A DNA stretch of 34,893 bases, taken from positions 1 to 34,893 of IMG/VR virus record IMGVR_UViG_3300006127_000048. One strand, given 5' to 3'. Under the pieces are notes generated by a model. It was given only the letters and a program-made list of their open reading frames with translations. It ran no database searches and was not told the DNA's origin. How positions within the stretch are numbered: the first letter of the stretch is position 1; each line of letters opens with the position of its first letter. Positions 1,840-24,286 of the stretch are shown in pieces. A program made the translations under genes and the position numbers. The DNA is from a virus (Duplodnaviria; Caudoviricetes).

Positions 1840-1863
1840 TTTTATATTTTGTTTATTAAATAT

Positions 1864-1900
1864 TAAAAGAGACGCAAAAGAAATAAATCTTTGCGCCTCT
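1864..1900 (-). terminator. Terminator-like hairpin in the portal 5' leader
   Basis: Minus strand reads AGAGGCGCAAAGA-TTTATT-TCTTTTGCGTCTCT followed by TTT. The G-U pair forms only in the minus-strand RNA. Confidence 0.55.
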
Positions 1901-1938
1901 GTTGAATCAGGTTAAGCGTTTTATTATGTTACGAGTTA

Positions 1939-1988
1939 ATTATATACCCACTATCTTATAAGTGCAAACAAGTCAAGACTGTGTATAA
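1939..1988 (-). promoter_or_regulatory. Sigma70 promoter for the portal/head operon with an upstream DnaA box
   Basis: Minus strand: TTATACACA (1988-1980), 12 nt, TTGCAC (1967-1962), 17 nt, TATAAT (1944-1939). Confidence 0.7.
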
Positions 1989-1996
1989 CCCCATAA

Positions 1997-2026
1997 CGCA
2001 AAAATCCCCAGAGAGGGAAATTTGCG
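1997..2026 (-). terminator. Intrinsic terminator after the packaging operon
   Basis: Minus strand CGCAAATTTCCC-TCTCT-GGGGATTTTTGCG, a GC hairpin with a T5 run, downstream of ORF 2298-2080. Confidence 0.5.
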
Positions 2027-2079
2027 ATTATTAGCTTTGATCATATCCTCATGAATTTTGTAAAGAACAGCTACCTAAA

Positions 2080-2298
2080 TTATACCACACTAAACTTATC
2101 TGACTTCGGGGAGTATGTGTATAAGTGCCGTTCAATTAAAAGTATATCCCCATTCTTGTCAAAGTTAATGGTGGCTGAACCACGCTTTATATCACTAAAA
2201 ACGCCAGAATCAAGCATGAATTTAATCTTATCGTAATGTTGCATAAATAGCTTAAATGCTTCTGTATCTTGGTCTGATAGTGTGATAATTGCTGTCAT
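2080..2298 (-). CDS. Hypothetical protein between terL and portal
   Basis: 72-aa ORF starting 3 nt after the terL stop, followed by a terminator. Confidence 0.75.
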   Translation of the reverse strand: MTAIITLSDQDTEAFKLFMQHYDKIKFMLDSGVFSDIKRGSATINFDKNGDILLIERHLYTYSPKSDKFSVV

Positions 2299-2301
2299 AA
2301 A

Positions 2302-3921
2302 TTATGTGTAGCGCCAGTCCGATTCTTTTGGAGAAACTTCTGGCATTGTTAATTGTATACCATCTGTCGTATTGTTGTGATAGCGATATGGTGCTTCTGG
2401 TATTACTGATTTCCTTTCACTACCACCAACGAACTGGCTCTCATTCTCTGCGAATCTGTCATAGGCTACTCGGTAATACACCATAGCAATAGCCCAGTCG
2501 TTACGATCTGAACGCTCCCAGACATAAACAAGATTGCCCATTCTATCCTCATCAACGATACGATACATATGTGACCAGTGAAGCCACATGTTCCACCATT
2601 TTTCTAAGTTACCCATGAGGAGAATACGCTTGTCGTTCATCTCGTCTACAGTCTGCTGAATGATACGGTTACGGTCTACAAGCACTCTGCCATATTCTTC
2701 ACCGTCTCCCCATTTAATAAGATTCATAGACTTTTTATCCTGAACAAATGAACATAGAAATACTTTACCTTTGTTATCATCTGCGAACTTACGAACTCCG
2801 ATGATGTCTCCACCCTGATCTATTACCATTATCCAATCATCATGCTTATCTACCTCACGCTGTAGTTCCTCATAGGTATCACATTCGCCATAATCAATAA
2901 GCCCATTCATATCTCCATAGCACCAGCGAATCTTTATACCTGTGTCAACTCCGAATAGTACACGACCTTTACGCTGTGTTTCTTCCGTCAAAATACCCTT
3001 AATCGTTTCAAGCGTAACCTTTGACTTGTTATCAGCATAAGGCAAAGCGAGTACGAAATTATGAAAGTATTGAGCTTCCTTTTCCTTGAAGTCTTTAATG
3101 ATTTTACTAGCAGGAATCCATGCACAAATAAGCTGTGGAATATGATAGCCACTGAACTCTGCTTCTGGGTTCTTCTTTCTCCAATGTCCTTCACGTCTAT
3201 CTTGGTCTGTAATCTCATTCTGACAGAACTTACATTGATAGCATTGACGTTGCTGATCAACTGAATATGGCCACTCCATGAACTGCCATTCTTTACATGC
3301 TGAACATAATATAAACCATTCTTTCATGTCGGATTTCTGCCAATATTGGTCTATACCGTTTCCAACTACACTAGGGTGAGATAAGTACCAACGCCAACCA
3401 CCTGCTTCCGCTTGCTGACGTGTTTCATATTGCGTAATGACTTCAGGATTTGAAGCGTCTATTTCGTCATGCACGTTTAGTTGTGAGGAGGACATTGTAG
3501 CTGATTTGGTAGTGAATGTACCACGCCAACGAATCATGCTATCGCCTATCTTCTTCTGTTCAATCGTGTCATGGTCTTTAGTCCAATTTTGGAATACCTT
3601 GTTTTGAGCAATAATACGGTTAATCTTATCTCCCACCATATCAAAGACATCGGACATAGTAGGCAAAGTGTAGATAATGTCCTTTTTCAAGAATCGAGCT
3701 ACCCATAGAATCTTAATAGTAAACATAACCGTAGCGCCTATCTGGGGAGCTTTCAGGATAGCTTGATATGGACTCATGTCCTCTAGAATATCTTTTAGGA
3801 ATGGTCTATCACGAAATGATAAAGACAAACCACGCTCACTTTTAATATCTTGTCCCTTAATGAAAAGATACGGATTTACCGCTTCAAGCTCTTCTGGTTT
3901 AATGTCTATTGTTTTTTTCAC
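2302..3921 (-). CDS. terL: Terminase large subunit (lambda GpA-like)
   Basis: 539 aa. Walker A-like KAPQIGAT, Walker B VHDEID, GpA-type Zn motifs CSAC and CKFC, RNase H-like nuclease GVDTG. Lies between terS and portal. Confidence 0.92.
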   Translation of the reverse strand: MKKTIDIKPEELEAVNPYLFIKGQDIKSERGLSLSFRDRPFLKDILEDMSPYQAILKAPQIGATVMFTIKILWVARFLKKDIIYTLPTMSDVFDMVGDKINRIIAQNKVFQNWTKDHDTIEQKKIGDSMIRWRGTFTTKSATMSSSQLNVHDEIDASNPEVITQYETRQQAEAGGWRWYLSHPSVVGNGIDQYWQKSDMKEWFILCSACKEWQFMEWPYSVDQQRQCYQCKFCQNEITDQDRREGHWRKKNPEAEFSGYHIPQLICAWIPASKIIKDFKEKEAQYFHNFVLALPYADNKSKVTLETIKGILTEETQRKGRVLFGVDTGIKIRWCYGDMNGLIDYGECDTYEELQREVDKHDDWIMVIDQGGDIIGVRKFADDNKGKVFLCSFVQDKKSMNLIKWGDGEEYGRVLVDRNRIIQQTVDEMNDKRILLMGNLEKWWNMWLHWSHMYRIVDEDRMGNLVYVWERSDRNDWAIAMVYYRVAYDRFAENESQFVGGSERKSVIPEAPYRYHNNTTDGIQLTMPEVSPKESDWRYT

Positions 3922-4987: not shown

Positions 4988-5129
4988 GAAAGTTTTCATT
5001 TGGATATTTGTCTCTCTTACGTCTTGCGGAGTAACGACCATTCTCCTGACCGTGCCAACATTTTCTGATCTGGCCGACTGATACTAAATAAGTCCTACCA
5101 CACTGACAATTTATTTCTTTTCTATTCAT
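4935..5129 (-). CDS. Small Cys-containing hypothetical protein
   Basis: Start overlaps the groEL stop; CQCG...CWH motif. Confidence 0.5.
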   Translation of the reverse strand: MNRKEINCQCGRTYLVSVGQIRKCWHGQENGRYSARRKRDKYPNENFHAKTKMSMRKTSNSPTV

Positions 5130-6648
5130 CGGATTTTGGTGGGACTTTTACAACTGCAATAGTTCCTTTGTTTATCAAACGACCTTTAGCGAATGAGACT
5201 GCATTTTCAATCGAGCAACGAGTAGCTTTTACTGGGTCTATTATACCAGATTTTATCATGTCAACATAGCACTCGTTCTCGGCATCAAAGCCTTTTCCTT
5301 TTGGCATATTGACTAGAATGTCTGCATAATCAAGTCCAATGTTATCAATGATTCTCTTGAACGGAGATAGGATAGCTTTCTTCATAATTCGTTCGCCTAT
5401 ATCGGTGCTAGAGAGCTTTTGAGATACTCGATATAGTGCCATGCCACCTCCCTCGACAATTCCTTCCTCTAGAGCTGATTTTACGGCATTAACGGCATCT
5501 TCTACCTTGTCATAGAGTCCCTGTGTCTCTCCTTCGGTCTTTGAACCGACTGAAATTACGGCTACATTACCCTGCAAACGAGCTATACGCTTCTCTACCA
5601 TGTCGTAATCATTATCATTGGTGATTGAGCCTAATTGCTGTTTTAATTGCTTTACAGTTGATTTTACGCTTCCAGCACCATTCAAAATGATAGTCTTACC
5701 ACTTGTAGCGATAACTTTTTCGGCTTTACCAAGATTTTCAAGTGTAATTTCTTCTAACTTATAGCCTGCGTCTTTTGAAATGAAAGTAGCACCAGTAACT
5801 AAAGCTACATCTTCTAGCACTTCGTTTTTCTGTGAGGCGCACTTAATTACAAGGGTATTAAACATACCGACTTGTTTATTATAGGCAAAAGTATTAAGTA
5901 CGGCTGGGTCTATCTCGGTACAGAAAATAACAAGCTCTTTGATAGTAGCTGAGGCTTTTTCTAGGAATGGCATTAACTCAGCGATTGTAGATAGTTTTTC
6001 GCCGATCACCAATGTACGGACACCTTTAAATTCTGCCTTGTTCCCCTTGTTACACATGAAAGGGTGAACATAGCCTTTTTCTACCTCATAGCCTTCAACG
6101 AGCTTAACTTCGGTGCTTGGTAGTTTAGATTCTTCAACTGTAATCTTTCCATCTTTGCCAACAGCTTCAAATGTATCAGTGATGATGTGGGCGATTTCGT
6201 CGGATTCAGATGACACAAGAGCCACTTGAAATATCTCTTTTGATGTTCGGATGGGCTTTGCAATCTTGCGAAGCTCATCAATAATTTTAACTTTAGCCTT
6301 TTCGATAGACTTATTTATCTTCTTAGGATTTTCGGAATATTTAAATGCTTCTGTAGGGATAGCGTGGCATAGCTTAATTGTTGTAGTAGTAGCGTCTCCT
6401 GCCTCTTCGTTAGTTTTAGCCGCCGCTTCGCACATAAGGTTCAATGTCTGACGCTCAATGTCGTCATTGACTTCAAGAGCTTTAGCGACACTCACACCGT
6501 CAGTAGTAACACGAGGGACTGAAAATGCTCGGTCTAGGGTTACAGCACCACCGCCAGGACCAAGAGTGCAACAAACATATTCCTCAACTAAGTCCATAAC
6601 TCGTATCATTTTTTGTCGGTCTTCTATTCCGTTAGAGAGTATTTTCAT
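5122..6648 (-). CDS. groEL: Phage-encoded chaperonin GroEL (Cpn60)
   Basis: 508 aa with TLGPGG, TTDGVSVAK, AGDATTTT, VGKDGKITVEES, KRIARLQGNVAVISVG, VEDAVNAVKSALEEGIVEGGG and GIIDPVKATR. No GGM tail. Confidence 0.97.
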   Translation of the reverse strand: MKILSNGIEDRQKMIRVMDLVEEYVCCTLGPGGGAVTLDRAFSVPRVTTDGVSVAKALEVNDDIERQTLNLMCEAAAKTNEEAGDATTTTIKLCHAIPTEAFKYSENPKKINKSIEKAKVKIIDELRKIAKPIRTSKEIFQVALVSSESDEIAHIITDTFEAVGKDGKITVEESKLPSTEVKLVEGYEVEKGYVHPFMCNKGNKAEFKGVRTLVIGEKLSTIAELMPFLEKASATIKELVIFCTEIDPAVLNTFAYNKQVGMFNTLVIKCASQKNEVLEDVALVTGATFISKDAGYKLEEITLENLGKAEKVIATSGKTIILNGAGSVKSTVKQLKQQLGSITNDNDYDMVEKRIARLQGNVAVISVGSKTEGETQGLYDKVEDAVNAVKSALEEGIVEGGGMALYRVSQKLSSTDIGERIMKKAILSPFKRIIDNIGLDYADILVNMPKGKGFDAENECYVDMIKSGIIDPVKATRCSIENAVSFAKGRLINKGTIAVVKVPPKSDE

Positions 6649-6884
6649 TTTGATATTGCAACTATTGACTTATAATTTACGAAGAAAAAATTGGCATGTT
6701 CTATAACGTGAGACTCTTTTGAAAATAACGCTTTAAGTCCAACTTTTAGATCAGGATTCTTTTGACCTGCTTCTATTCCGACAGATAAAATCTGTCCCTC
6801 ACGCATAACAGTTTCCGTGGAAACAAAACCTTTCGGCTTTTCTTTTGGTAGTTGTACCTGTACAAATTCTCCTGTGGCTTTCAT
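6645..6884 (-). CDS. groES: Co-chaperonin GroES-like (Cpn10)
   Basis: 79 aa, ATGA-coupled to groEL. The pattern EGQILSVG...LKVGLKALFSK...SIVAI resembles Cpn10 (GxVxAVG...VKVGDxVxF...ILAI). Confidence 0.8.
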   Translation of the reverse strand: MKATGEFVQVQLPKEKPKGFVSTETVMREGQILSVGIEAGQKNPDLKVGLKALFSKESHVIEHANFFFVNYKSIVAISK

Positions 6885-8538: not shown

Positions 8539-9003
8539 ATGGCAAAATCACAAGTACAATTCACGAAAGACAATGAATACTACACACCGAAGTCATTTGT
8601 AGATAGATTCGGTAAGTTTGATTATGATCCAGCGACTACTAAAGAAAAAGCTATGGAGTTTGGTGTACCTAATTTTGATACGGTTGAAACTGATGGACTT
8701 TCAAAAGACTGGTCGCAATACAAACGGATATGGATAAATCCACCATTCACAAGGAAACATGAGTTTCTTGCAAAGGCATGGTTTACCTATCTGAAATCAA
8801 AAAATGAAATATACATATTATTTCCGATTGAATTTATGACTACTGCCAGATTCCATAATGCTATCGGGGGGGGCAAAATCTTCATTCCTAACGGAAGAAT
8901 CAATTTTGAAAGTGGACTTGGAAAGAAAGGAAAATCCCCTGCTTTTGGAAGTGTTGTAATGAAACTACAAGATACATTTGAAATAGAGTTGATAAATAAG
9001 TAA
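8539..9003 (+). CDS. Phage Dam-like DNA N6-adenine methyltransferase
   Basis: EYYTPK, FDYDPA, DGLSKDW, WINPPF and GRINF motifs of the phage Dam family. Confidence 0.88.
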   Translation: MAKSQVQFTKDNEYYTPKSFVDRFGKFDYDPATTKEKAMEFGVPNFDTVETDGLSKDWSQYKRIWINPPFTRKHEFLAKAWFTYLKSKNEIYILFPIEFMTTARFHNAIGGGKIFIPNGRINFESGLGKKGKSPAFGSVVMKLQDTFEIELINK

Positions 9004-13426: not shown

Positions 13427-13637
13427 AAAACAAGCATATAATACTTTAGTTGATCATTTTTCTCCACCAATAACATTATCATATGTTGTAGATGAAGAAG
13501 GTAGAATGTTAAGTTTCTTTGACTTTCATTCTCAAATGAATGATGAATGTAGGTTATATTTCCACGATACTTTTTCAACTCCAAGTAAAGAAATACGGTT
13601 GACAACTGATGATGTAAGAATGCTTGGTAAGTGGTAA
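13419..13637 (+). CDS. Hypothetical protein
   Basis: 72-aa ORF overlapping the previous stop. Confidence 0.6.
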   Translation: MNEKQAYNTLVDHFSPPITLSYVVDEEGRMLSFFDFHSQMNDECRLYFHDTFSTPSKEIRLTTDDVRMLGKW

Positions 13638-13722
13638 TGGCTCTTTTAGGGGTAAAGTTTCCGAAAGTTAATTGAATTTGCAGATTGTGCTGAAAGGGTA
13701 GTTAAATCTTGGAATAAATAAA

Positions 13723-14175
13723 ATGACAAACGCAAAGAAAAAAGGAAATCATGGTGAGAACTTATTTGCTACTTTCTTGCGTTCACATGGATTTAAGGCT
13801 TTTAGAGATTCAGCAAGTGGCGGATCAACCCATAAATCAGATATAGTAAATGGATTAGATTATTCAATGGAAGTTAAGACTGTTAAAAAACTGAACCTAA
13901 AAGAATGTTGGAAGCAAGTTACACGAGATTCTTCTATAGCTCATAATTCACCATTACTTGCAATTCACCTAGATGGTATGCCTGAAAATGAGTGGATTAT
14001 AGGATTACACTCAAACGATTGGGTAGAACTAGAAAAAACTGCTCGTCAAAAGCCTAAAATTGAGGATAACCGAGCAGAAACACACCAGTACGATAGGAAT
14101 ACCATATATGCCTTACAACAGCTTAAATCGCAAATAAACAGGGTTTCTAAATTACTTGAAGATGAAAACCAATAA
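13723..14175 (+). CDS. PD-(D/E)xK nuclease, Holliday junction resolvase-like
   Basis: KKKGNHGE...SGG...SDIV...MEVK pattern of Hjc-like phage resolvases. Confidence 0.8.
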   Translation: MTNAKKKGNHGENLFATFLRSHGFKAFRDSASGGSTHKSDIVNGLDYSMEVKTVKKLNLKECWKQVTRDSSIAHNSPLLAIHLDGMPENEWIIGLHSNDWVELEKTARQKPKIEDNRAETHQYDRNTIYALQQLKSQINRVSKLLEDENQ

Positions 14176-14683
14176 ATACAATCCTTCATATACCTCACAA
14201 GTCTTTCTCGGCAAAGTCGGTTTAGATGGAGTTACAAAAAAAGTAGCTTTAAATGCACCAAAACTATACCAACATTTCTTAAACGAACAGACTAAAGTCG
14301 GAGATGAAGTAGCTATGTATATTACAAGTAAAAGACCAAAAAGAAGTTTGTTACAAAATAATTACTATGCGTTGTATCTATCGCTAATTTCAACGGCTAG
14401 TGGTTATACACCAAAAGAATTACGTGCATGGGCAAAAGGAAAGTTTTTATCACGAGGAATAAAAGAAATCTACGGAGAAAAGACTAGGATTGTAGATAGT
14501 TCTGCGGATCTAAGAATTGGTGAGTTCTGTGAGTTTCTTTGTCAGATAGAAGAAGCTACGGAAATACCATGTCCTAAAACTGATCCGTTCTTGAAAGCAC
14601 TTACACAAGAGGAGTTTAATGATCTAAAAGAATCTCAAAAACAGGCTTACTCAAAAATGAAAGCTAAAATCGTAATTAACTAA
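14162..14683 (+). CDS. NinB/Orf-like recombination protein
   Basis: KRSLLQNNYY motif and SSADLRIGEFCEFLCQIE C-terminal motif resemble the NinB family. Confidence 0.6.
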   Translation: MKTNKYNPSYTSQVFLGKVGLDGVTKKVALNAPKLYQHFLNEQTKVGDEVAMYITSKRPKRSLLQNNYYALYLSLISTASGYTPKELRAWAKGKFLSRGIKEIYGEKTRIVDSSADLRIGEFCEFLCQIEEATEIPCPKTDPFLKALTQEEFNDLKESQKQAYSKMKAKIVIN

Positions 14684-14684
14684 C

Positions 14685-14840
14685 ATGCCCTGCATTACCC
14701 ACAAACTAGTTCTCGTAGGCAACCACTACATTAACGGCAAGCAAGATAGTTCAACTTTCTCCGAGGGTGAATGGCGTGAAGAAAAAGTATGTAAGGTGTG
14801 TGGAGTGGTATGGGATTATAAATTAAATAAAAAAAGATGA
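14685..14840 (+). CDS. Small Zn-binding protein (51 aa)
   Basis: Not in track. MPCITH...CKVCG; ATGA-coupled to the next gene. Confidence 0.55.
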   Translation: MPCITHKLVLVGNHYINGKQDSSTFSEGEWREEKVCKVCGVVWDYKLNKKR

Positions 14841-15259
14841 CTCAACAAACATGTGATATATGTAATCCAAAAGAAAAAATACCAGAAAGCGGAACTATGA
14901 CTGCATGTGGTAAACACTCCGTAGATTATGTTCACCAACAAACATGGGAGGAAAGTATAATCAATCCAAGTAAAGGATTTGGAGACGGTGAATGGAAGGA
15001 TATTCCTACTTGGCAAGAAAGGTTTGATGAGAAGTTTGATAAACCATTATCAGATATAGTCCATAAACATTTAGCTAATCCTATTAGTCGATATACCTAT
15101 TACGATAATACAGAGATTAAATCCTTCATCTCCCAAGAACTTAACCGACAGAGAGAGGAGATAAAAGAAATTGCAGAATCATGTAAGGAAGAAATTGAAA
15201 CTGATGGGGTGACTATTACCACTATAAATTATCAAAGATTTATTAAGCAACTCAAATGA
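14837..15259 (+). CDS. Hypothetical protein with N-terminal CxxC...CxxH
   Basis: 140 aa. Confidence 0.65.
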   Translation: MTQQTCDICNPKEKIPESGTMTACGKHSVDYVHQQTWEESIINPSKGFGDGEWKDIPTWQERFDEKFDKPLSDIVHKHLANPISRYTYYDNTEIKSFISQELNRQREEIKEIAESCKEEIETDGVTITTINYQRFIKQLK

Positions 15260-15295
15260 CCAAACAAGAGATAATTAAATCTAATAATAATTAAG

Positions 15296-15481
15296 ATGAA
15301 AAAGCCGAAGAAAATAAAGATAAAGTTATCCGAAATTGAAATGAGTATAATCATACAAAATTGGTTACTTGATAAGAAAGTTTCAAACATGGGGCTTATT
15401 TCAATAGAGGCTCACCGACATATACGAAAGTTTATAAAAGGGTTAAGAGCAATATGTTTATCAGAAGAATTGCAAGACTAA
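15296..15481 (+). CDS. Hypothetical protein
   Basis: 61-aa co-oriented ORF. Confidence 0.55.
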   Translation: MKKPKKIKIKLSEIEMSIIIQNWLLDKKVSNMGLISIEAHRHIRKFIKGLRAICLSEELQD

Positions 15482-15493
15482 TCCCCCACGATA

Positions 15494-15841
15494 ATGGGGA
15501 AAAGAAATAAAATGACCAACCCAAAAACAATAGCATATCAGGAACAAATGAAAGAGTTTGAAGCAAGATTCCCATTTTGGAAGGCAGGGCAGAACTGTAT
15601 GCAAGAACCAACAGATGAATCACAAGATATTAAACATTTTCTTACCTCCTCCTACCTCCACCAGCTTGAAGAAGAGGTGAAGAGGTTGAGGGGGAAGAAA
15701 AGGGAATTGAAACACGATAAATGGTGCGACAGTTACGAATGTTCATGTGGTTGGGAACAAGGAGAAGGTTTTAATCAGTGTCTTGATTCCGAAATCGCCC
15801 TGTGTGAAGAAGCCATTAAAGAGATAAAAGAATTACGATGA
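15494..15841 (+). CDS. Hypothetical protein
   Basis: 115 aa; alternative start at 15512. Confidence 0.65.
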   Translation: MGKRNKMTNPKTIAYQEQMKEFEARFPFWKAGQNCMQEPTDESQDIKHFLTSSYLHQLEEEVKRLRGKKRELKHDKWCDSYECSCGWEQGEGFNQCLDSEIALCEEAIKEIKELR

Positions 15842-15932
15842 AAAAGAAACCTAAACCATGCACCCACCCTAAACATTTGTATTGCGTAACCTGTGGTAGT
15901 GGTGGAGCAAGCATTATCAATAAAACCTAAAT

Positions 15933-16571
15933 ATGGCAACAGAACTAAAAAGTGAATTGATAGAGGCGTGCGGTTGGCACACAATCGGATCCGAAGCGGA
16001 TTGGCGAAAGTGCCAACAGTGTGTGAAGCGGTACAAGAAATACAACATCATCTACGCTGACCCGCCTTGGTCTTATAGGGATAAAGCCCTCGCTGGAAAT
16101 AGAGGTGCTGGGTGCAAATATCCCGTTCAAAGCAAAGCGTGGTTAGAGGCATTGGATGTGAAAGGTATTGCCGACACCGACTGTATTTTATTTCTCTGGG
16201 TAACAATGCCGAAACTCGACGAGGCGTTTGACTTGATAAAGGCGTGGGGTTTCAACTACAAAACAGTGGCGTTCACTTGGGTAAAGCGCAATAAGAAAGC
16301 AGATAGTTGGTTTTGGGGAATGGGTAGGTGGACACGCGCCAATGCCGAGTTATGTTTACTTGCCACAAAAGGAAGCCCTACTCGCGTATACGCAGGTGTT
16401 CACTCTGTTGTTGATACGCCCATTGAAGGACATTCAAAAAAAACTGATTGTGTTCGGGGTCGAATTATTGACCTTGTTGGTAATGCGCCGCGCATTGAAC
16501 TCTTTGCACGACAAAAAACCGAGGGTTGGGACGTATGGGGGAACGAAATAGAAAGTGATATTGTTCTTTGA
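15933..16571 (+). CDS. MT-A70 family adenine methyltransferase
   Basis: YNIIYADPPW, LFLWVT, WGFNYKTVAFTWVK, GMGRWTRANAELCLLA, HSKK, RIELFAR and GWDVWGNE. Confidence 0.93.
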   Translation: MATELKSELIEACGWHTIGSEADWRKCQQCVKRYKKYNIIYADPPWSYRDKALAGNRGAGCKYPVQSKAWLEALDVKGIADTDCILFLWVTMPKLDEAFDLIKAWGFNYKTVAFTWVKRNKKADSWFWGMGRWTRANAELCLLATKGSPTRVYAGVHSVVDTPIEGHSKKTDCVRGRIIDLVGNAPRIELFARQKTEGWDVWGNEIESDIVL

Positions 16572-16599
16572 CGCTTTTATAAATTAACTAAAAAAATAT

Positions 16600-16764
16600 A
16601 TGAAAATAGAAATGGGTGAGAAAAAATACTGTCCTGAATGTACACATGAGGAATGTCCAACATGCCACGCTTGCCACAATCAACCATGTGTATTCTTTCA
16701 AAATCCTTTTAAAGAATGTTACCAGGCATTATTAAGAACTTTTCCCTCCCCAACTAACTCGTAA
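16600..16764 (+). CDS. Small Cys/His-rich protein (54 aa)
   Basis: Not in track. ...YCPECTHEECPTCHACHNQPC... Confidence 0.6.
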   Translation: MKIEMGEKKYCPECTHEECPTCHACHNQPCVFFQNPFKECYQALLRTFPSPTNS

Positions 16765-16770
16765 ATATAT

Positions 16771-17337
16771 ATGAATCAAGGCGGAAAATTAGCTGGTGGA
16801 AACCCAGCCAGAGGTAGAGCAGATAATGATTATTATGCTACACACCCAGATAGTACAAAAGCATTGCTGGCTGTTGAGGAGATTATTTACCCTGCTTTAG
16901 AACCATCATGTGGTGAGGGACATATATCAAAACTGTTAGATGGGTATAGAACAAAGTCTTTTGATTTGATTGATAGAGGATATGGAAATGTGGGAACAGA
17001 TTTTCTTACCACTGATTTTGTTGGGGAATATGCAACAGTAATTACAAATCCTCCATTTAATTTGTTTCAAGAGTTTGTGGAAAAATCTTTGAGAATAGCT
17101 ACAAAAAAAGTTATAATGTTTGGTAAGTTACAAGCTCTTGAAGGTCAAAAGCGAGCAACATTTCTTCAAAAAACACCATTACGAACAGTATATGTTTTTA
17201 AAAAAAGACAGCAACCTATGAGAAACGGAAAATCAAATGATGAGGTTACAGGAAAGAAAATGAGTTCTACAATGGCGTTCGCTTGGTTCGTATGGGAAAT
17301 TGGCTATCAAGGAAAACCAACTATTGAATGGATTTAA
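16771..17337 (+). CDS. DNA amino-methyltransferase (NPPF)
   Basis: DYYAT, SAM-binding LEPSCGEGHIS, DFL, catalytic VITNPPF and AWFVW. Confidence 0.88.
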   Translation: MNQGGKLAGGNPARGRADNDYYATHPDSTKALLAVEEIIYPALEPSCGEGHISKLLDGYRTKSFDLIDRGYGNVGTDFLTTDFVGEYATVITNPPFNLFQEFVEKSLRIATKKVIMFGKLQALEGQKRATFLQKTPLRTVYVFKKRQQPMRNGKSNDEVTGKKMSSTMAFAWFVWEIGYQGKPTIEWI

Positions 17338-17359
17338 TCCCCCTCACCCCTATAAACAA

Positions 17360-17542
17360 ATGAAAGAAGAAGTCGTAATGCCAAAAGTTCAGATGCAAAA
17401 GTATGGTAAAAACTGGAGAGTAACTTTTACTATAGGTTATCAAACATTTGGAGTTGAATCATTCAGAACGAAAAAGGAGAACGAATGGCTTGTAAAAATG
17501 CTTAAAGAGGCGTTTGGAAGAATAAATCCACCTAATGAATAA
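17360..17542 (+). CDS. Hypothetical protein; last gene of the early block
   Basis: Start re-set to ATG 17360; 60 aa. Confidence 0.6.
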   Translation: MKEEVVMPKVQMQKYGKNWRVTFTIGYQTFGVESFRTKKENEWLVKMLKEAFGRINPPNE

Positions 17543-17623
17543 TCCCCTACCCCAAAGAGTAAGATATGGTAGAATGTAATCTCACGCTGTCCTTGCAAGG
17601 ATTTTAGCTATTTATCACAGAGT

Positions 17624-17660
17624 AAAGAAACACCGTCAAATAAATGGCGGTGTTTTGTTA
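17624..17660. terminator. Bidirectional intrinsic terminator where the two arms converge
   Basis: AAACACCGTCA (17628-17638)-AATAAA-TGGCGGTGTTT (17645-17655), with an A-rich left flank and a T-rich right flank. Confidence 0.8.
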
Positions 17661-17812
17661 TTTCGGCACAAGAATAGTTTTCTTGCCGTTTTTGACGACA
17701 ATGATTCTAGTGTCATAGATTGGAAAGGTAAGTTCCAAACCTTGTGCAAGCGATTGTTCATTTGTATGTCAGAGCCTTGTAGGATGACAACATCTACCCA
17801 GAGGTGTTTCAT
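17636..17812 (-). CDS. SD-led micro-operon ORF3 (58 aa; possibly frameshifted)
   Basis: GAGGAGGTG-GAAC-ATG; MKHLWVDVVILQGSDIQ...; ATGA overlap with ORF2. Its stop lies inside the terminator. Confidence 0.45.
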   Translation of the reverse strand: MKHLWVDVVILQGSDIQMNNRLHKVWNLPFQSMTLESLSSKTARKLFLCRNNKTPPFI

Positions 17813-17982
17813 GTTCCACCTCCTCGATCAGTTCCTTCGAGAGCGTCCCAAGGCAATTCGTTTTGAATGTGCGTAGGTGGTTCTTCAGGAGGGTGTGCAA
17901 AGACTGGACATTCGGTTGTGTTGTCGTTCGCTAACTGGCAACGATACCGACAGATACAGATTAAGCATGGTGAGTAGGTCAT
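17809..17982 (-). CDS. SD-led micro-operon ORF2 (57 aa, Cys-rich)
   Basis: AAGGAG-TTTGT-ATG; MTYSPCLICICRYRCQLANDNTTECPVF...; ATGA overlap with ORF1. Confidence 0.55.
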   Translation of the reverse strand: MTYSPCLICICRYRCQLANDNTTECPVFAHPPEEPPTHIQNELPWDALEGTDRGGGT

Positions 17983-18167
17983 ACAAACTCCTTCTCAAAA
18001 GGTTTATCAACAGGTTTGATTGCTGTAGCTGGGATAGTGAAAATATCAGCATAGTCCCAGAGTGTGGCACAATTCACGTCGCAAAAAGTTTCGTGATGAC
18101 GATGAAAACAGGGTTGTCCGTTTAATGATTTGTTGCAGTAACGGCAGACCGCAGGTTTATTTTCCAT
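17979..18167 (-). CDS. SD-led micro-operon ORF1 (62 aa, treble-clef/TRASH-like Zn finger)
   Basis: GAAAGGA-AACTT-ATG; CRYC...FCDVNC. Confidence 0.65.
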   Translation of the reverse strand: MENKPAVCRYCNKSLNGQPCFHRHHETFCDVNCATLWDYADIFTIPATAIKPVDKPFEKEFV

Positions 18168-18261
18168 AAGTTTCCTTTCAAGTTGAGTTGTTTAGAGCTG
18201 GTCTTGATTCATAACTCTCGGTTATGTTTAATCAAGGGTCTGATCTAAGTATACACCCATA

Positions 18262-18291
18262 ACAAAAATCCACTATTACAGTGTAGTGGAT
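18262..18291 (-). terminator. Intrinsic terminator after the lysis cassette
   Basis: Minus strand ATCCACTA-CACTGTAA-TAGTGGAT-TTTTGTT. Confidence 0.7.
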
Positions 18292-18357
18292 AATTGTTTT
18301 AGGATAGCGACATTTTACCGATAGTTGTGTGTTCGTTTCCTTGCTATTAGTATATCA

Positions 18358-18537
18358 CTATTTAACTCCTGTGATAATGTTGTATGTGTGTCCAATTGCT
18401 GTCAATCCTGACAAAACGAAACCGATTACTACAGCTACCTGTGGGGAGACGAGACTTGTAATTGAACCTAGACCTGTAATAACGAAAGTAAGAATTATAC
18501 CGATCTGAACTTTATGACTGTTTATATATGCGAACAT
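18358..18537 (-). CDS. Holin-like two-TM protein (59 aa)
   Basis: Not in track. MFAYINSHKVQIGIILTFVITGLGSITSLVSPQVAVVIGFVLSGLTAIGHTYNIITGVK, directly after the putative lysin. Confidence 0.65.
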   Translation of the reverse strand: MFAYINSHKVQIGIILTFVITGLGSITSLVSPQVAVVIGFVLSGLTAIGHTYNIITGVK

Positions 18538-18571
18538 GTTTTTATTGTTAGTTTAATAAATCTGATAATAA

Positions 18572-19489
18572 TTATACACCGACCTTTTTGGCTTGTATAG
18601 AGCCAAACCATTGCTTCCAAAAGGCTAAAACCCCTGCATAGAACGAATTAGACATTCTTTGCTGTTGAGGAATAGGCGGTACGACCACAATAGGCTGTAT
18701 AGGGCGTATAAAGCCTTGCGTGGCTACTCCAACATAGTAACCAGAGGCCAGAAACTTAGGATTAGGCTGATATTGGTCATTTATAGTCATATTGCCCACA
18801 GAATCAATACTTAGCAACGACACTTCGTGGCAGATCGATGTATCCGTGTTTACAGGTACATTCACTTGATTCCACTGATTTCCGTCTACTGGAATACCAA
18901 TATTTAATGGTGCTTGCTGTAAAGCTGTTCTCATTGACTGTATATCTGTAGAAATACCCTGACTTTGAATGGTTACATACTTTAAGAATTGCTGACCTAG
19001 AGCTTTCATAGCAGGTGTTACACGAGAAACATTATAGTAATCCTCAATAAATACTTCCTCACTAGAATCTGCATTAGCTAAAGCCTGACTATAGTTGAGC
19101 ATTGAACGGGGTATAAAGCCTCTTGAAGCAAATGACTGCCATGCTTCTGGTGAAGTACCTCCATTATCTAGGTTTCCACAAAGTATCTCATGGAATAGTT
19201 CCGATAGTTGGAAAGTGCCATTAACTATATAACCATTAGTATTGAAAAAGTTAAGAGCTTCTGTACCGAATTGATTGTTGGCAAGTAGCCAGTTAATTTG
19301 GATCGTGGCGCATTGGACCGAAGAGAGACACCAGCAGTCGTCTGAATCATAATTACCCCACTTTTGATTCTCAAAGAAAGGCGGTTGCCATACTGCATTT
19401 GGTTCACGGACAACAAAAGGTATTGTTGATGAAAATATCCCCTTTACAAATGTCTTTATTTTTCTTCGGGGTAATGGTTTGAATTGCAT
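18572..19489 (-). CDS. Papain-like (clan CA) cysteine peptidase in the endolysin position
   Basis: Oxyanion Gln and catalytic Cys in ENQKWGNYDSDDCWCLS, GG motif, His in ICHEVSL, and INDQY. Flanked by TM proteins. Confidence 0.7.
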   Translation of the reverse strand: MQFKPLPRRKIKTFVKGIFSSTIPFVVREPNAVWQPPFFENQKWGNYDSDDCWCLSSVQCATIQINWLLANNQFGTEALNFFNTNGYIVNGTFQLSELFHEILCGNLDNGGTSPEAWQSFASRGFIPRSMLNYSQALANADSSEEVFIEDYYNVSRVTPAMKALGQQFLKYVTIQSQGISTDIQSMRTALQQAPLNIGIPVDGNQWNQVNVPVNTDTSICHEVSLLSIDSVGNMTINDQYQPNPKFLASGYYVGVATQGFIRPIQPIVVVPPIPQQQRMSNSFYAGVLAFWKQWFGSIQAKKVGV

Positions 19490-19493
19490 ATTG

Positions 19494-19778
19494 TTAAATC
19501 GCTCCGTGTGTTTTGGCAGTATTTATAACTAGTCCGACAATGGCAAGGATAATTACTCCTGCAACTAGATAAATACCCCATGTAAACGCTTTCTCTACCC
19601 AAACATTAGCTTTAGTCGAAATTTTCTCATCAATCTTATTCATTACCTTTTCCCAAACTTTCTCTTCGGCAAGAGCATGGTCTTTGATCATTTGCTTAAT
19701 CTCTCCTACCTCTCCTTTTAAATAATCTATATCTTTTGCCATGAGTTCCATTTTAGTTGTTAATGAATAATCCTGCAT
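19494..19778 (-). CDS. Coiled-coil protein with a C-terminal TM helix (XhlA/holin-like)
   Basis: Heptad-patterned N-terminus, TM GIYLVAGVIILAIVGLVI, upstream of the lysin. Confidence 0.65.
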   Translation of the reverse strand: MQDYSLTTKMELMAKDIDYLKGEVGEIKQMIKDHALAEEKVWEKVMNKIDEKISTKANVWVEKAFTWGIYLVAGVIILAIVGLVINTAKTHGAI

Positions 19779-19784
19779 GACAAT

Positions 19785-19940
19785 TTACGCAGACTTCTCC
19801 TCTGCAGGTTTAGGATTGATAATAGTGTCAAGGACTTTGGCACATTCTACTAGAAAAGCATGTTCCTCTGCGGTCAATTTAGCTAGACGAGTAGCGTTGT
19901 AAAGGTTATTAAGGGCTTCTTTTGGAGTGATTTTAGGCAT
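19785..19940 (-). CDS. Small hypothetical protein (51 aa)
   Basis: Not in track. MPKITPKEALNNLYNATRLAKLTAEEHAFLVECAKVLDTIINPKPAEEKSA fills the gap. Confidence 0.65.
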   Translation of the reverse strand: MPKITPKEALNNLYNATRLAKLTAEEHAFLVECAKVLDTIINPKPAEEKSA

Positions 19941-20172
19941 TTGTTGCAAGGTTATAGGCTTGTAATTTTTGTTCTGCTAAAGCTAATTGAGCCTGAAGTT
20001 GTTTTATATTATCGTTTAGAAACTTAACCTGATTATTTAAACCCACTAGATTACCCAATTCTACAGAAGTAGTCTGATAGGAATTACCAGCTTGGTCTGT
20101 TTGTGTTGTGGTTGTAGAGATTTTGATTTCTCCGTTTGATAATTTTGTTGCTGTTACTGTTGGTGTGTTCAT
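19933..20172 (-). CDS. Hypothetical protein with a C-terminal coiled coil
   Basis: 79 aa; ATG lies 7 nt after an extended -10. Confidence 0.7.
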   Translation of the reverse strand: MNTPTVTATKLSNGEIKISTTTTQTDQAGNSYQTTSVELGNLVGLNNQVKFLNDNIKQLQAQLALAEQKLQAYNLATNA

Positions 20173-20179
20173 GGATATT

Positions 20180-20215
20180 ATTATAACATTATTTTGATAA
20201 TCATGCTGTGGATTA
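20180..20215 (-). promoter_or_regulatory. Extended -10 promoter for the lysis-side operon with a near-consensus DnaA box
   Basis: Minus strand TAATCCACA (20215-20207)...TGT-TATAAT (20185-20180); no good -35. Confidence 0.5.
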
Positions 20216-20773
20216 CTTCCTTAATACAACCAACGACCCTGATTGTAGATAAATCGTAATCCCTTTCTCACTAATGAACTTGTCAATGACTGTCTTTACA
20301 TCTGGATATTCTTTGTTTCCGTAATCATGGAGACAGATAAAGCCGTTTTTGACTGTATGTTCCCATGCCCAGTTTAAATCCCCCGTGAGAGGCTTTTCAA
20401 AGTGTCCTCCGTCAATATAGACCATACCAAATGACCCTTGAACTAGAGGTAAGACATTCTCACTTCGACCTCGTAAGGTGATTATTCTATCGTTCAGCCC
20501 TAGCTTCTCCATATTCTCCCTAAAGGAAATTAGAGTGTCCTTGTAAACCACACTTCTATCGTTCCAATATGATTGACCTTTAGCGAACCAATCCACGCAG
20601 ATTAGAAAGCCATTACGGAGCTTTGCGACTTGTCCTATAACCGAAGCAGAACGACCCACGAAAGTCCCGACTTCTAGGAAGTTGGCGATAGGTGCGTCAA
20701 TAGCGCAGTTGTGAAGCATACGAGCTTGCTCATCCATTAAAGAACCATGAATATTTTTATAGTCTATTTTCAT
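20213..20773 (-). CDS. Class I SAM-dependent methyltransferase (Methyltransf_24-like, sugar O-methyltransferase type)
   Basis: LEVGTFVGRSA, CVDWF, VYIDGGH and GFICLHDY; start re-set to ATG 20773. Confidence 0.85.
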   Translation of the reverse strand: MKIDYKNIHGSLMDEQARMLHNCAIDAPIANFLEVGTFVGRSASVIGQVAKLRNGFLICVDWFAKGQSYWNDRSVVYKDTLISFRENMEKLGLNDRIITLRGRSENVLPLVQGSFGMVYIDGGHFEKPLTGDLNWAWEHTVKNGFICLHDYGNKEYPDVKTVIDKFISEKGITIYLQSGSLVVLRK

Positions 20774-21671
20774 AAATATAGTGTGGACTGGCTTTGCCAA
20801 CGTTAATTCGTCTTTTACCTTTGTTTGATTCAGGTACTTTGTATTCAAGCGCTGGATTTAAAGTTAAGTCCGTTCCGTCTGTATCGTAGAGAGGTGTTTT
20901 ACATTGATAGCTTTTGAATATGAGAGCCTGTTCAGTACCGAGGTGTTCAAAGTGTACGAACTTTATATCCCAACAGACAGCTAACTTCTTTCCGAGATTT
21001 CTGATAGATATACCAGCGAAGATATCCTGACCCCAAAATTCATTACAAGGAAAGTCGTGCTTGTCCAAAAACTCACCAGAATAGATTTGAAAACCTGTAG
21101 CTGTAGAGGTGAAGTAATCAGTACCAGTTTCTTTCTCTTGTTTGTAGTGGATGTTTCTTATCACATGACCCTCATCAAGATTCCAAATGAGCAGAGCCTT
21201 ACCTTCGTGCCATGTTTTCATGCGAGGGCATTGAACACCACCAACTGACCATACATCACCTTTTAATTCAGGTAACATTCGTTCATAAGCGTTCTCAGGC
21301 ACGGCGATATCGTCTTCAAAGAAAACTATTCCTCCACCACCATTATCCTTGCGCCATTGATTGATTATTTGTAGGGTTTCGGCAACCGTAAATCTCTTTG
21401 TAAGGAATAATTCCCTTTGCTCATCTTTGCGAGGGCTTTCAGCCACATCAGCATATTTCTTAGGTGGGTCTTTGATGTAGTCTACTGACTTCCATTCGTT
21501 ACCATGCTCTGCGATATACTTTTTGAATAGGGCAGTTATCTCGTCATCTTTCGCCATATCCACAAAGAGAAGTTTCATCTCACTTCTTGGCATACGGACA
21601 CGCTGAAAATTGTGAAGCCAGACTTCATGTGTTTTGAGACCTCTATTTATAAATGGGCAGGCGACTATCAT
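20757..21671 (-). CDS. GT-A fold (GT2-like) glycosyltransferase
   Basis: LLFVD, DxD-like VFFEDDI, ATGF, GQDIFAG and late His motif IKFVH. Confidence 0.75.
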   Translation of the reverse strand: MIVACPFINRGLKTHEVWLHNFQRVRMPRSEMKLLFVDMAKDDEITALFKKYIAEHGNEWKSVDYIKDPPKKYADVAESPRKDEQRELFLTKRFTVAETLQIINQWRKDNGGGGIVFFEDDIAVPENAYERMLPELKGDVWSVGGVQCPRMKTWHEGKALLIWNLDEGHVIRNIHYKQEKETGTDYFTSTATGFQIYSGEFLDKHDFPCNEFWGQDIFAGISIRNLGKKLAVCWDIKFVHFEHLGTEQALIFKSYQCKTPLYDTDGTDLTLNPALEYKVPESNKGKRRINVGKASPHYIYENRL

Positions 21672-21672
21672 G

Positions 21673-21984
21673 TTAGTTTACTGTTACTGTTCCGTCTGGA
21701 TTAGTTGTTGTCTTTATTGTTGTCGTCAGGGTTATATACGAAGGATTCACAACAGAAAGAACTTGCTGACCAACAGTCAAGAATTGGAGTAATGCACCTG
21801 CGTCTGTTCCCCATTGAATTAGAACTTGTTGTGGTGTGTAGTTAGGGTTATTGAATACTCCATTGAAAATGGAAGCTATACCAGCACTAAGCGTATTATT
21901 TACATTGATAAGCGAAGCCTTCTGACCGTCTACTGTCTCGCTGATTGTTGGAACTGATCTTTTTATTTGTGGTATTAATGACAT
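21673..21984 (-). CDS. Hypothetical protein (possible fibre chaperone)
   Basis: 103 aa immediately after the large fibre gene. Confidence 0.6.
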   Translation of the reverse strand: MSLIPQIKRSVPTISETVDGQKASLINVNNTLSAGIASIFNGVFNNPNYTPQQVLIQWGTDAGALLQFLTVGQQVLSVVNPSYITLTTTIKTTTNPDGTVTVN

Positions 21985-21994
21985 ATGTTTTTAA

Positions 21995-24286
21995 TTAAAC
22001 CCATGATGACCCATTATAATAAGTTTGGGCATGAGTTGAAAAGTTATAAGCTAATTGACCCTCTACTGGCGAACTAATCGTAGTGTAATCTGGTAATAAA
22101 TATCCCATCGCTGCCGACATCGCATTTAGAGTTGCTACTGGACCGACTGAAGCCACTCCACCTGCACCTGCTGCAACACCAGAACCACCAGTAACGACTC
22201 CTTGTGAATATACAGGACCATCTACTTCCAATCGACCTGTTTTAATTGCTCCTGCGTTAATTCCAGCGACTTCTAGACCAGCGAATTTAATAACATAAAG
22301 GTCGCCAGCACTATTATCTACAAGATACACATAGTTACCATCAGAGGTGATACCATTGACCGAACCTCCATAACTTAGATGAGCAACACCTACAGGAGCA
22401 GTTGGGTCATACACATCCATACACCAAAAGTCATGGTAGCCAGTAGAGAATATATATCGACCATTAAGAGTACAAAATGTTTGATATGCACCCAAGTGTG
22501 TCGTTGAAACAATATAAGGTGCTGTTAAATCACCGATATTTAATATAACCAAATCTCCAGTATTATACATTGGAACGTAAACATATGGAGAATTAACTTG
22601 AAGTGATGGTCCAGAGCCTGATTCAACAAATGTCGAAGAAACTAGAGATGGACTAGAGGCATTTTGAAGACTATATATATTCAGATATGTGCTACCTCCA
22701 TTGTAAAGAGAAACGAACAAATTATTTTCACTTACTAGAGTATAAAATCCTGACACAAATCCTGTACTAATTGTATTCGCCAATTTAGGAGATGATGGAT
22801 TTGAAACATCTACTACAACAAGATTTCCTGTGTTGTCAGCCGTGTACACATACGAACCAGCTACTGCTGTACCTTGATAATATGAAGCTCCTGTTAATGT
22901 GCAATACCCAAAGAATACAGGAGCATCTTTATTTGTAACATCAATGACCTCCATATAATTACCATTTCCAAACAGATATACATAGTTACCTTGAACTGCA
23001 CAAGTTCCAGGACTTCCTCCAGTGATATAAGTAGGATAATAAACTCCAAGTATTTTCGGGTTGGTTGGAATCGTCAAATCATAAATCTGAAGATGACAAG
23101 CATAGTCGACTGAATAACCGAAGTTACCCGCTTTCACAAGATAGTTTGGTCCGTCATGACCTGCTGCAGTAACTGAACCCACTTGAGCTATTTGACTAAC
23201 ATTAGTAATGACATTATTTAAATTCTGACCAAGATTAACATTTCCTGCAACAGAGAGATTATTGTAAAGAGTAAGTCCACCATTAGGGTCAAAGAGAAAA
23301 TCTAGCCCACCACGAATAGAATCATAAAGATAAAATGTTTGAGTGCCGTCTTTGTAAACATCGTTACCCATTTCATACTTACTTTCAATGTTTCCATATC
23401 CAACATTATCAGAACCTAACCAATGAAATACTGTAGAGCGACTTGTGTTGACGGGAGAGTTTCTGTTTTTTAAAAATATACGAGTACGATTGTCGCTTGA
23501 ACTTTCACCTGATATTTGTGCAATACCTTCGCTATCTCCACTACCGAAGTTATTACCATAAACATCTAAAACAAATTGAGGATTTGAGAGACCAAAGCCA
23601 TGATAAGTGTGTGTGGAATAAAAAGTATCTTCCTGTAACTGAAGAATGTGAGAATGACCCCCACTAGCCGACATTTGAAAAAATCTTGATTCGCCATTTA
23701 ATGACATCCAAATACTTGCCCAGTCTTGGTTATCAAATTTGAACACACCGCCATCATATCCCATGTAGGCTTGATGTCCGCTTCCGTCATTATAGAAAAT
23801 AAGACCTTTTTTACCTTGTGGATTTATGGAAATTGTTGAACCACCAACTTGCCAATAAGAACTTGAACCGCCATTACCGAAGTATCCTGCACCGTAGGAA
23901 TGTAAAGATTGGTCTCCAAAATCTACCCAAAATGGGAAATATCCCCCTGAACCTGTTGGCTCTGCACCACTAGTAAGAACCCAGACATCGCTACCAGCGC
24001 CAGTAGGTTTATAAGATGAAACTGAATTAAGATAGGCAAATCTAAACTCTCCACCAGATTGAGGTGTAAAACGGATTGTGGCAGCGCCTGTATTTGTGGC
24101 GTCTCCTACGGAAACTTTACCCCTAAAAGAGCCATTACCACTACTATCCAAAGTCGCATTATTAGTACCTGTTATAGTGTTAGTCCCTGAACCGAAGGCT
24201 ATCTGTGTAGCACCGATTGAGCCACCGATAGTGCCTGTATTGACTGCGTCGAGATTTGAGGTGAAGGGATTAAATACAAATTTCAT
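21995..24286 (-). CDS. Tail fibre / receptor-binding protein with an LVIVD-repeat beta-propeller
   Basis: 763 aa, G/S/N-rich. Repeats LQIYDLTIPTNP, MEVIDVTNKDAP, LVVVDVSNPSSP, LNIYSLQNASSP, LVILNIGDLTAP and WCMDVYDPTAP; typical fibre end EGQLAYN...YYNGSSWV. Confidence 0.8.
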   Translation of the reverse strand: MKFVFNPFTSNLDAVNTGTIGGSIGATQIAFGSGTNTITGTNNATLDSSGNGSFRGKVSVGDATNTGAATIRFTPQSGGEFRFAYLNSVSSYKPTGAGSDVWVLTSGAEPTGSGGYFPFWVDFGDQSLHSYGAGYFGNGGSSSYWQVGGSTISINPQGKKGLIFYNDGSGHQAYMGYDGGVFKFDNQDWASIWMSLNGESRFFQMSASGGHSHILQLQEDTFYSTHTYHGFGLSNPQFVLDVYGNNFGSGDSEGIAQISGESSSDNRTRIFLKNRNSPVNTSRSTVFHWLGSDNVGYGNIESKYEMGNDVYKDGTQTFYLYDSIRGGLDFLFDPNGGLTLYNNLSVAGNVNLGQNLNNVITNVSQIAQVGSVTAAGHDGPNYLVKAGNFGYSVDYACHLQIYDLTIPTNPKILGVYYPTYITGGSPGTCAVQGNYVYLFGNGNYMEVIDVTNKDAPVFFGYCTLTGASYYQGTAVAGSYVYTADNTGNLVVVDVSNPSSPKLANTISTGFVSGFYTLVSENNLFVSLYNGGSTYLNIYSLQNASSPSLVSSTFVESGSGPSLQVNSPYVYVPMYNTGDLVILNIGDLTAPYIVSTTHLGAYQTFCTLNGRYIFSTGYHDFWCMDVYDPTAPVGVAHLSYGGSVNGITSDGNYVYLVDNSAGDLYVIKFAGLEVAGINAGAIKTGRLEVDGPVYSQGVVTGGSGVAAGAGGVASVGPVATLNAMSAAMGYLLPDYTTISSPVEGQLAYNFSTHAQTYYNGSSWV

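Follow-up and report, generated by a model that had tools for sequence, protein, structure and literature searches.

The cassette and its surroundings

The stretch of DNA analyzed here, which we call the window (34,893 nucleotides), is most of a ~40-kb phage genome, with a completeness estimate of 89%, and the capsid region missing from it is present in a near-identical record. Its late arm and its divergent early arm meet at about 17,600, and here, after a holin-like gene, lie three small coupled genes led by Shine-Dalgarno (SD) sequences, in a genome whose other gene starts are A-rich. An earlier note on this DNA had reported three ATGA-coupled minus-strand ORFs with their SD motifs, and all are as it described them. 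The holin label is putative, because its basis is hydropathy and position without a family match. Read along the minus strand, the features of the locus are:

18358..18537, minus strand: holin-like gene with two predicted membrane segments, SD-less, the anchor of the slot (hydropathy and position)
18268..18291, both strands: terminator-like hairpin between the holin-like gene and the cassette (hairpin scan)
18248..18253, minus strand: candidate -10 box TATACT, in the context GGTGTATACT, without a -35 (sequence)
18173..18179, minus strand: SD of ORF1, GAAAGGA, -5.9 kcal/mol
17979..18167, minus strand: ORF1, 62 aa, Cys/His-rich, predicted TRASH/FCS-like zinc finger (model features)
17988..17993, minus strand: SD of ORF2, AAGGAG, -8.8 kcal/mol, within the end of ORF1
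17809..17982, minus strand: ORF2, 57 aa, member of a seven-sequence Cys-rich family
17817..17825, minus strand: SD of ORF3, GAGGAGGTG, -12.9 kcal/mol, encoded by the Gly-Gly end of ORF2
17636..17812, minus strand: ORF3 as called, 58 aa, its tail entering the terminator
17658..17768, minus strand: open -1 frame of 36 codons, with its stop (17660-17658) directly before the hairpin (match to the C-terminus of the second cassette gene of the related phage record G011)
17627..17656, meeting point of both arms: terminator-like hairpin at the convergence of the late and early arms (hairpin scan)

None of the 16 long genes (200 aa or more) in the window has an SD. By duplex energy with the canonical anti-SD, ORF1, ORF2, and ORF3 (-5.9, -8.8, and -12.9 kcal/mol) take ranks 1–3 among the 60 called genes, and three top scores would be adjacent by chance with p 0.0017, although ORF1 is only marginally stronger than two unrelated genes ranked next (-5.8 and -5.5). 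The observation of an SD-led unit in a phage otherwise almost without SD sites is borne out. The cassette is also less AT-rich, as had been noted by eye (GC of 0.432 versus 0.381 for the window), but this excess is modest, since 6.5% of same-size windows are equally high. Recoding of TGA is not supported, as the core genes are open under table 11, and neither the cassette DNA nor the terminase had a match among GenBank phages. Elsewhere, the window carries phage-encoded GroEL and GroES-like genes (5122-6884, minus strand), which share about 40% identity with every bacterial GroEL tested and are also found in several relatives, three DNA methyltransferase-like genes in the early arm (8539-9003, 15933-16571, and 16771-17337), and a methyltransferase/glycosyltransferase-like pair amid the tail genes (20213-21671); these labels come from motifs, with a Pfam match for 16771-17337 only. 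A second record of the same phage (L005) is identical over 14313-23167 and differs from window positions 1-3921 in the terminase (98% identical) and portal, which is strain variation away from the cassette.

The unit had been credited with its own -10, a hairpin leader, and terminators on both sides. The terminators stand, as hairpins at 18291-18268 and 17656-17627 flank the unit. For the promoter, TATACT is present at 18253-18248, and its context GGTGTATACT, identical or nearly so, also precedes the cassettes of two relatives (G026 and G027); however, the box has no -35 and is not among the promoters listed by a scan of the window. Across the family, a strict scan placed promoters ahead of only 4 of 21 cassettes, and in most of these 21 a hairpin coincides with the last stop or lies close to it, as judged by eye. 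The leader did not hold up as a structured regulatory RNA, and we rejected it: its hairpin is not significant (z -1.27, with 19 of 200 shuffles equally good), it is absent from the homologous cassette of G011, and an Rfam scan of 17400-18600 gave nothing near the gathering score. A six-codon ATG...TAA frame (18192-18212, minus strand) lies in the leader over this hairpin and could be due to chance. Two promoter-like sites are found near the holin-like gene (18349-18377 and 18571-18599, minus strand), one with an extended -10 that overlaps the gene's end and the other before the gene.

Two of the products had been described as small and Cys-rich, which agrees with the Cys/His-rich ORF1 and with the Cys-rich family of ORF2. 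ORF1 is predicted to be TRASH/FCS zinc-finger-like by model features only: its Atlas feature score to a putative TRASH cluster is 0.94, with a TM of 0.6–0.7 on a weak model, and its Pfam hits fall below the cut-off. The AlphaFold pLDDT of the modeled cassette ORFs was 58.6 and 47.0, the lower being that of ORF1, which is too weak for a fold search. More generally, ORF1–ORF3 had no Pfam match above the cut-off, no PADLOC match, and a single weak HNH match in PHROG; ORF2 had none in any of the three.

In terms of conservation, the three genes differ. ORF1 has no sequence homolog that we could find. ORF2 has six homologs with 38–62% identity, and its family retains all four cysteines (C6, C9, C15, and C25) as well as P26, F28, W45, and E49; in six of the seven members the protein ends in Gly-Gly, the codons of which form the SD of the next gene. 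As single queries in viral contigs, ORF1, ORF2, and the peptidase-like gene returned the window phage only, and the ORF2 family was not found among 401 Paceibacteria genomes. The only ORF2 homolog whose context was seen is in G011, a phage record with a terminase 44% identical to that of the window. There, peptidase-like, lysozyme-like, and holin-like genes are followed by a promoter (TTGACG-17-TAAACT), the ORF2 homolog and a second gene, both SD-led, and a terminator, ahead of the converging early arm, so that one relative has ORF2 and ORF3 in the same slot as the window.

ORF3 itself is likely a frameshifted gene that has become fixed in the window phage population. Its start weakly resembles the second gene of G011 and its called tail has no likeness to it, while the -1 frame matches the C-terminus of that gene (shuffle p 0.003, or 0.0007 when read through with an X). 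Contigs from eight sequencing runs, several perhaps of the source DNA, have no indel at the break, which speaks against an assembly error, and no tandem slippery heptamer, as for a programmed frameshift, was seen by eye. BLASTP alone does not align ORF3 with the G011 gene, so their homology is modest. ORF3 is likely decaying in the window.

A conserved slot after the holin-like gene

The relatives come from 80 of the 509 viral stretches matched by a search with the terminase alignment. The set of 36 is made up of 32 of the 33 longer viral records and four phage contigs binned in genomes, and their genes were called by our own script, which rewards A-rich and SD starts alike. In these relatives and the window, 100 of 2197 genes are ATG genes led by an SD, and they cluster: adjacent SD-led pairs number 16 versus 4.8 in shuffles, none of 5000 reaching this count. 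The holin-like gene could be placed by position and hydropathy in 22 of the 36; the other 14, which were fragmentary or ambiguous, were excluded. In the 1.8 kb that follow this gene, an SD leads 32 of 122 genes versus 50 of 1503 elsewhere, and 15 of the 22 relatives have at least one such gene where 3.1 are expected, but p-values for the slot are optimistic because the anchors and the window size were picked after viewing the maps. The relatives with no SD-led gene in the slot are G013, G015, G019, G026, G028, G031, and G036. In G019, a tRNA-like 3' end lies immediately upstream of a small SD-led gene (L173:390-480, minus strand). A count that does not depend on the gene caller agrees, as strong SDs precede 32 of 429 long-frame ATGs in the slots versus 6 of 510 short-frame ones; at a control offset the count is 8 of 429, and outside the slots it is 132 of 8505. 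The slot is therefore a conserved feature of the family, made up of small SD-led genes after predicted holin and lysis genes.

The slot genes are often Cys/His-rich, HNH-like, or apparently secreted, and are arranged in cassettes of one to six ORFs (three coupled in the window) that are mostly unrelated among relatives; the content of the slot turns over fast. Their composition also sets them apart from the core: GC3 is 0.53 versus 0.40, stops are TGA in 24 of 36 (partly through ATGA coupling), and cassette GC exceeds that of the carrier in 16 of 16 records. The earlier suggestion of a different translation regime thus finds support across the family, where SD, codon use, and stop use all depart from the core genes. 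The parallel suggestion of a foreign moron is only partly upheld. The anatomy of the unit is moron-like, but recent import is not supported, given a slot that is family-wide, cassette GC that tracks that of the carrier phage (r 0.63 over 16 records), which argues against recent arrival, and the occurrence of the tested slot family in SD-poor viral contigs and in Paceibacteria chromosomes. The moron concept itself reportedly goes back to original work by Hendrix and Juhala.

Probable host group and SD-led genes in chromosomes

We consider Patescibacteria the likely host group of the window phage. SD-led long genes make up 24 of 466 in Paceibacteria, compared with 5 of 18 in an Acidobacteriota genome and 14 of 25 in Bacillota prophages with a distant terminase; the SD-free, A-rich starts of the window match the first and differ from the two controls, although this trait is not exclusive to CPR. 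At genome loci of terminase relatives, 25 of 59 carry CPR titles by manual count. Most of the closest relatives are stand-alone phage contigs that had been binned with a variety of genomes, and no intact integrated close relative was seen among these loci; an Adlerbacteria locus was rejected as an intact prophage and is a remnant. On long chromosomal contigs, the relatives are mostly in Patescibacteria-titled or small genomes and belong to a short capsid-less element found mainly in CPR. This element (L107-L144, e.g., L111, L112, L121, and L130) occurs in many CPR chromosomes, often after secA, with a replication-like gene, a methyltransferase, a ParB-like gene, and small and large terminase genes; it is possibly a satellite of the window phage family. 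GroEL was discarded as a host marker, since it is 36–43% identical to Paceibacteria and scores similarly against other bacteria.

A further lead comes from one relative, G022. Its structural genes are SD-less, an SD-led operon follows its holin, and it has an SD-led tyrosine integrase adjoining a whole tRNA-Ala(GGC) flanked by short inverted repeats, as in an attP. Other SD-led genes there are DUF932, DUF7830, and aspartyl-protease-like (loci L181:659-1664 and 13520-15326). The best match of the tRNA among five non-CPR genomes tried, in an Acidobacteriota genome, is 97% identical, and in 61 Paceibacteria the identity over its full length is at most 80%. For the integrase, neither 61 Acidobacteriota nor 101 Paceibacteria genomes gave a close match, and it is matched in only 1 of 37 records; together with two slot genes of G022 it carries no taxonomic signal. 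The nine matches in a search of 401 Acidobacteriota genomes included no close integrated relative. G022 could also be a mosaic or a misassembly.

This tRNA, the 34 of 59 terminase loci that are not CPR-titled, and a GroEL without host signal would all be accommodated if the host were another SD-poor or mixed lineage (Bacteroidota, Ignavibacteria, or Acidobacteriota), the SD contrast being simply the rules of that host. We find this very improbable, as the Bacteroidota promoter motif is not enriched in the window (39 versus 40.2 expected), the SD-led fractions of Acidobacteriota and Bacillota given above are far from the 0 of 16 in the window, most chromosomal terminase relatives are in Patescibacteria-titled or small genomes, and a slot family is found in Paceibacteria chromosomes.

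That slot family, HNH-like, was defined from slot genes in four relatives and has no member in the window. In 11 further (non-seed) viral loci it is SD-led in 8, and two of the 11 copies have no SD, in contigs that are SD-less. It is also found in 7 of 251 Paceibacteria genomes, as four clear copies beside rlmN and three weak ones. The four clear copies are all SD-led, and all four genomes share the same anti-SD-less 16S tail (one 16S match each, full-length in three and the 3' end only in G072). In two of the genomes (among L341-L344), the HNH-like gene is followed by a second SD-led, Cys/His-rich gene. The four proteins are 49–74% identical, and 49–64% of the fourfold sites of the adjacent rlmN differ. 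Their SDs, which differ in letters, have pairing energies of -10.9 to -16.3 against the canonical anti-SD and of only -0.5 to -4.6 against the 16S tail of the same genome. Since the SD is kept while about half of the synonymous sites have changed, in cells with anti-SD-less tails, it is likely selected rather than a relic, and its pairing argues for a reader other than the cell's own 16S tail. As the ORF2 family was not found in the 401 Paceibacteria genomes, this link to chromosomes rests on a family that the window lacks. A strongly SD-led run of genes that includes pyruvate phosphate dikinase was also observed in an Adlerbacteria-titled genome with a 16S tail without anti-SD (G038:C2:269527-278599, L217).

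The same results bear on whether the cassettes are foreign morons from SD-using bacteria or phages, with SDs that are functionless relics decaying along with the genes. Cassette GC and GC3 above the core, the fast turnover of slot content, a frameshifted ORF3, and an ORF1 without homologs would all be expected of such genes. We nevertheless judge this quite unlikely, given that the SD is retained in homologs at 38–74% protein identity with half of the synonymous sites changed, that GC follows the carrier, and that the searches made turned up no SD-using donor (one ORF2 homolog was seen in context).

The 16S rRNA of the likely host group, which the earlier note had wanted inspected for CCUCC, gives a divided answer. 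Among 31 Paceibacteria tails (30 of 84 genomes with a 16S match, plus G038), 10 have CCTCC and 21 have no anti-SD, two of these being near-intact; the 10 of 31 is in line with the 48% given for Parcubacteria by Tsurumaki et al. (2022), who describe anti-SD loss (PMC9297842). Internal GGAGG leans toward an SD-reading host for the window phage. In its long genes GGAGG occurs 19 times versus 33.7 expected (1 of 300 shuffles is as low) and is among the lowest 7 of 858 five-mers. This ratio of 0.50 resembles SD-reading controls (0.51 and 0.69) and lies outside the range of seven anti-SD-less Paceibacteria (0.91–1.06), which suggests that the phage's own host reads SD.

A host of this kind, a Patescibacterium with a working anti-SD, would make the cassette an ordinary moron translated by SD in the same cell, beside an A-rich, SD-free core; the SD would free it from the late operon or tie it to a particular ribosome state. 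The GGAGG deficit and the 10 of 31 tails that keep the anti-SD speak for this, no transfer between cells is required, and rpsU offers a known case of selective SD use in an SD-less lineage (PMC9976891). We regard it as a real possibility and a close rival of the partner-cell reading set out below. Against it, the avoidance test is weak, as it does not separate anti-SD-positive from anti-SD-negative hosts (p 0.87), draws mostly on the Gly-Gly frame, and shows no deficit in G011 (0.95), a phage with the same ORF2–ORF3 cassette; anti-SD-positive Paceibacteria are equally SD-poor in their long genes (11 of 234 versus 13 of 232 in the negative ones); and SD retention in four anti-SD-less chromosomes is left unexplained.

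Alternatively, something within the Patescibacteria cell besides the 16S tail could read the SD-like sites: a small RNA, a different segment of rRNA, or a protein by which this class of mRNA is marked or stabilized. This would suit anti-SD-positive and anti-SD-negative hosts, phages and chromosomes, without transfer between cells, and a conserved helix (h26) of unknown role is mentioned by Tsurumaki et al. (PMC9297842). We think it improbable, because the spacing is canonical, with GGAG 10–11 nt from the start in 23 of 34 cases, and because SD variants retain Watson-Crick or G-U pairing with the canonical anti-SD.

A partner cell as possible reader, and comparison with known systems

From the sequence pattern and its conservation, we infer a further possibility, the one that we tentatively favor: the cassette would be a moron with SD-led genes that forms a separate transcription unit and is translated on the ribosomes of a partner cell. 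On this account, the phage family, otherwise SD-less, probably infects Patescibacteria; the cassette would be transcribed from the TATACT box to the hairpin; phage DNA or mRNA would reach the cell on which the host lives; the anti-SD-bearing ribosomes of that partner would translate the SD-led cassette, and the SD sites would be kept for them; and the small metal-binding or nuclease-like products may act on the partner. We prefer a partner-cell reader because a single one covers phages and chromosomes, hosts with and without the anti-SD, the codon dialect, and G022. The earlier note had raised mRNA acting in a partner cell as a speculation, and this draws indirect support from G022 and from the SD-led genes in four anti-SD-less chromosomes, and is weakened by the GGAGG result, which leans toward an SD-reading host. 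Also counting against it are the 10 of 31 tails with CCTCC, cassette GC that follows the phage rather than a fixed partner, the match to the G022 integrase in only 1 of 37 records, and two of 11 viral HNH-like copies without an SD.

A broader form of the partner-cell idea is a two-cell phage life, in which the SD-less core serves the tiny host while SD-led cassettes serve the parasitized bacterium, which phage DNA would enter and, as G022 may indicate, perhaps lysogenize. The cassette is a real and conserved feature that neither chance nor recent import explains, and a two-cell reading is credible, if on balance unlikely. If it is true, SD-led genes in Patescibacteria chromosomes would be cargo for the ribosomes of the partner, and across whole genomes an SD motif would mark effector genes directed at the partner. 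The action of Patescibacteria and their phages on partner cells is hard to study, and a sequence mark that splits genes into two translation classes would give a short list of partner-directed candidates. Under the rival readings, the cassettes would still show that some genes use the SD selectively, or that the SD has an unknown reader, in cells without the standard mechanism.

The literature on SD and leaderless genes in Patescibacteria and CPR phages (mostly open literature) yielded nothing on SD-led cassettes in these phages; the phage slot and the gene pool common to phages and chromosomes, neither of which we found in print, are new here. Context is provided by PMC10746230, PMC13059738, and PMC12641178. 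Compared with the SD-led genes of Patescibacteria chromosomes, with which it has one family in common, the phage class lies at a fixed place in the genome, and ORF2 was not found in the chromosomes tested.

The closest anatomical parallel is the phage moron, as defined in PMC4378225. Like morons, the cassette has a terminator of its own, together with a candidate promoter site, between conserved neighbors, its content varies among relatives, and its composition is unlike that of its neighbors. Unlike morons, which are described there as usually a single coding region, it has two to four coupled genes (three in the window), its GC is above rather than below that of the carrier and tracks it, and its initiation signal differs from that of the rest of the genome. 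The same source notes that some morons are expressed from a repressed prophage (lysogenic conversion); no integrase was seen in the window or in its missing part, so lysogenic conversion is not evident in this phage.

In Bacteroidia, the anti-SD is sequestered and rpsU is SD-led, according to McNutt et al. (2023, PMC9976891). The likeness is a genome free of SD with an exceptional SD-led class, read there by a special ribosome. However, Bacteroidia keep the anti-SD, which bS21, bS18, and bS6 sequester, and have one SD-led ribosomal-protein gene, whereas here there are many unrelated small SD-led genes, also where the anti-SD has been lost, and ORF1–ORF3 gave no bS21 match. For passage between two cells, the nearest case is Xhp1, a prophage of a Schaalia partner with limited infection of TM7x, a phage that enters both cells (PMC13578794). 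The main texts of that study and of Liu et al. (2023, PMC10746230) make no mention of SD sites. Both describe phages able to enter an episymbiont and its partner, as the window phage would under partner-cell reading; unlike Xhp1, the direction here would be reversed, and it would be written in the genome as two sets of signals.
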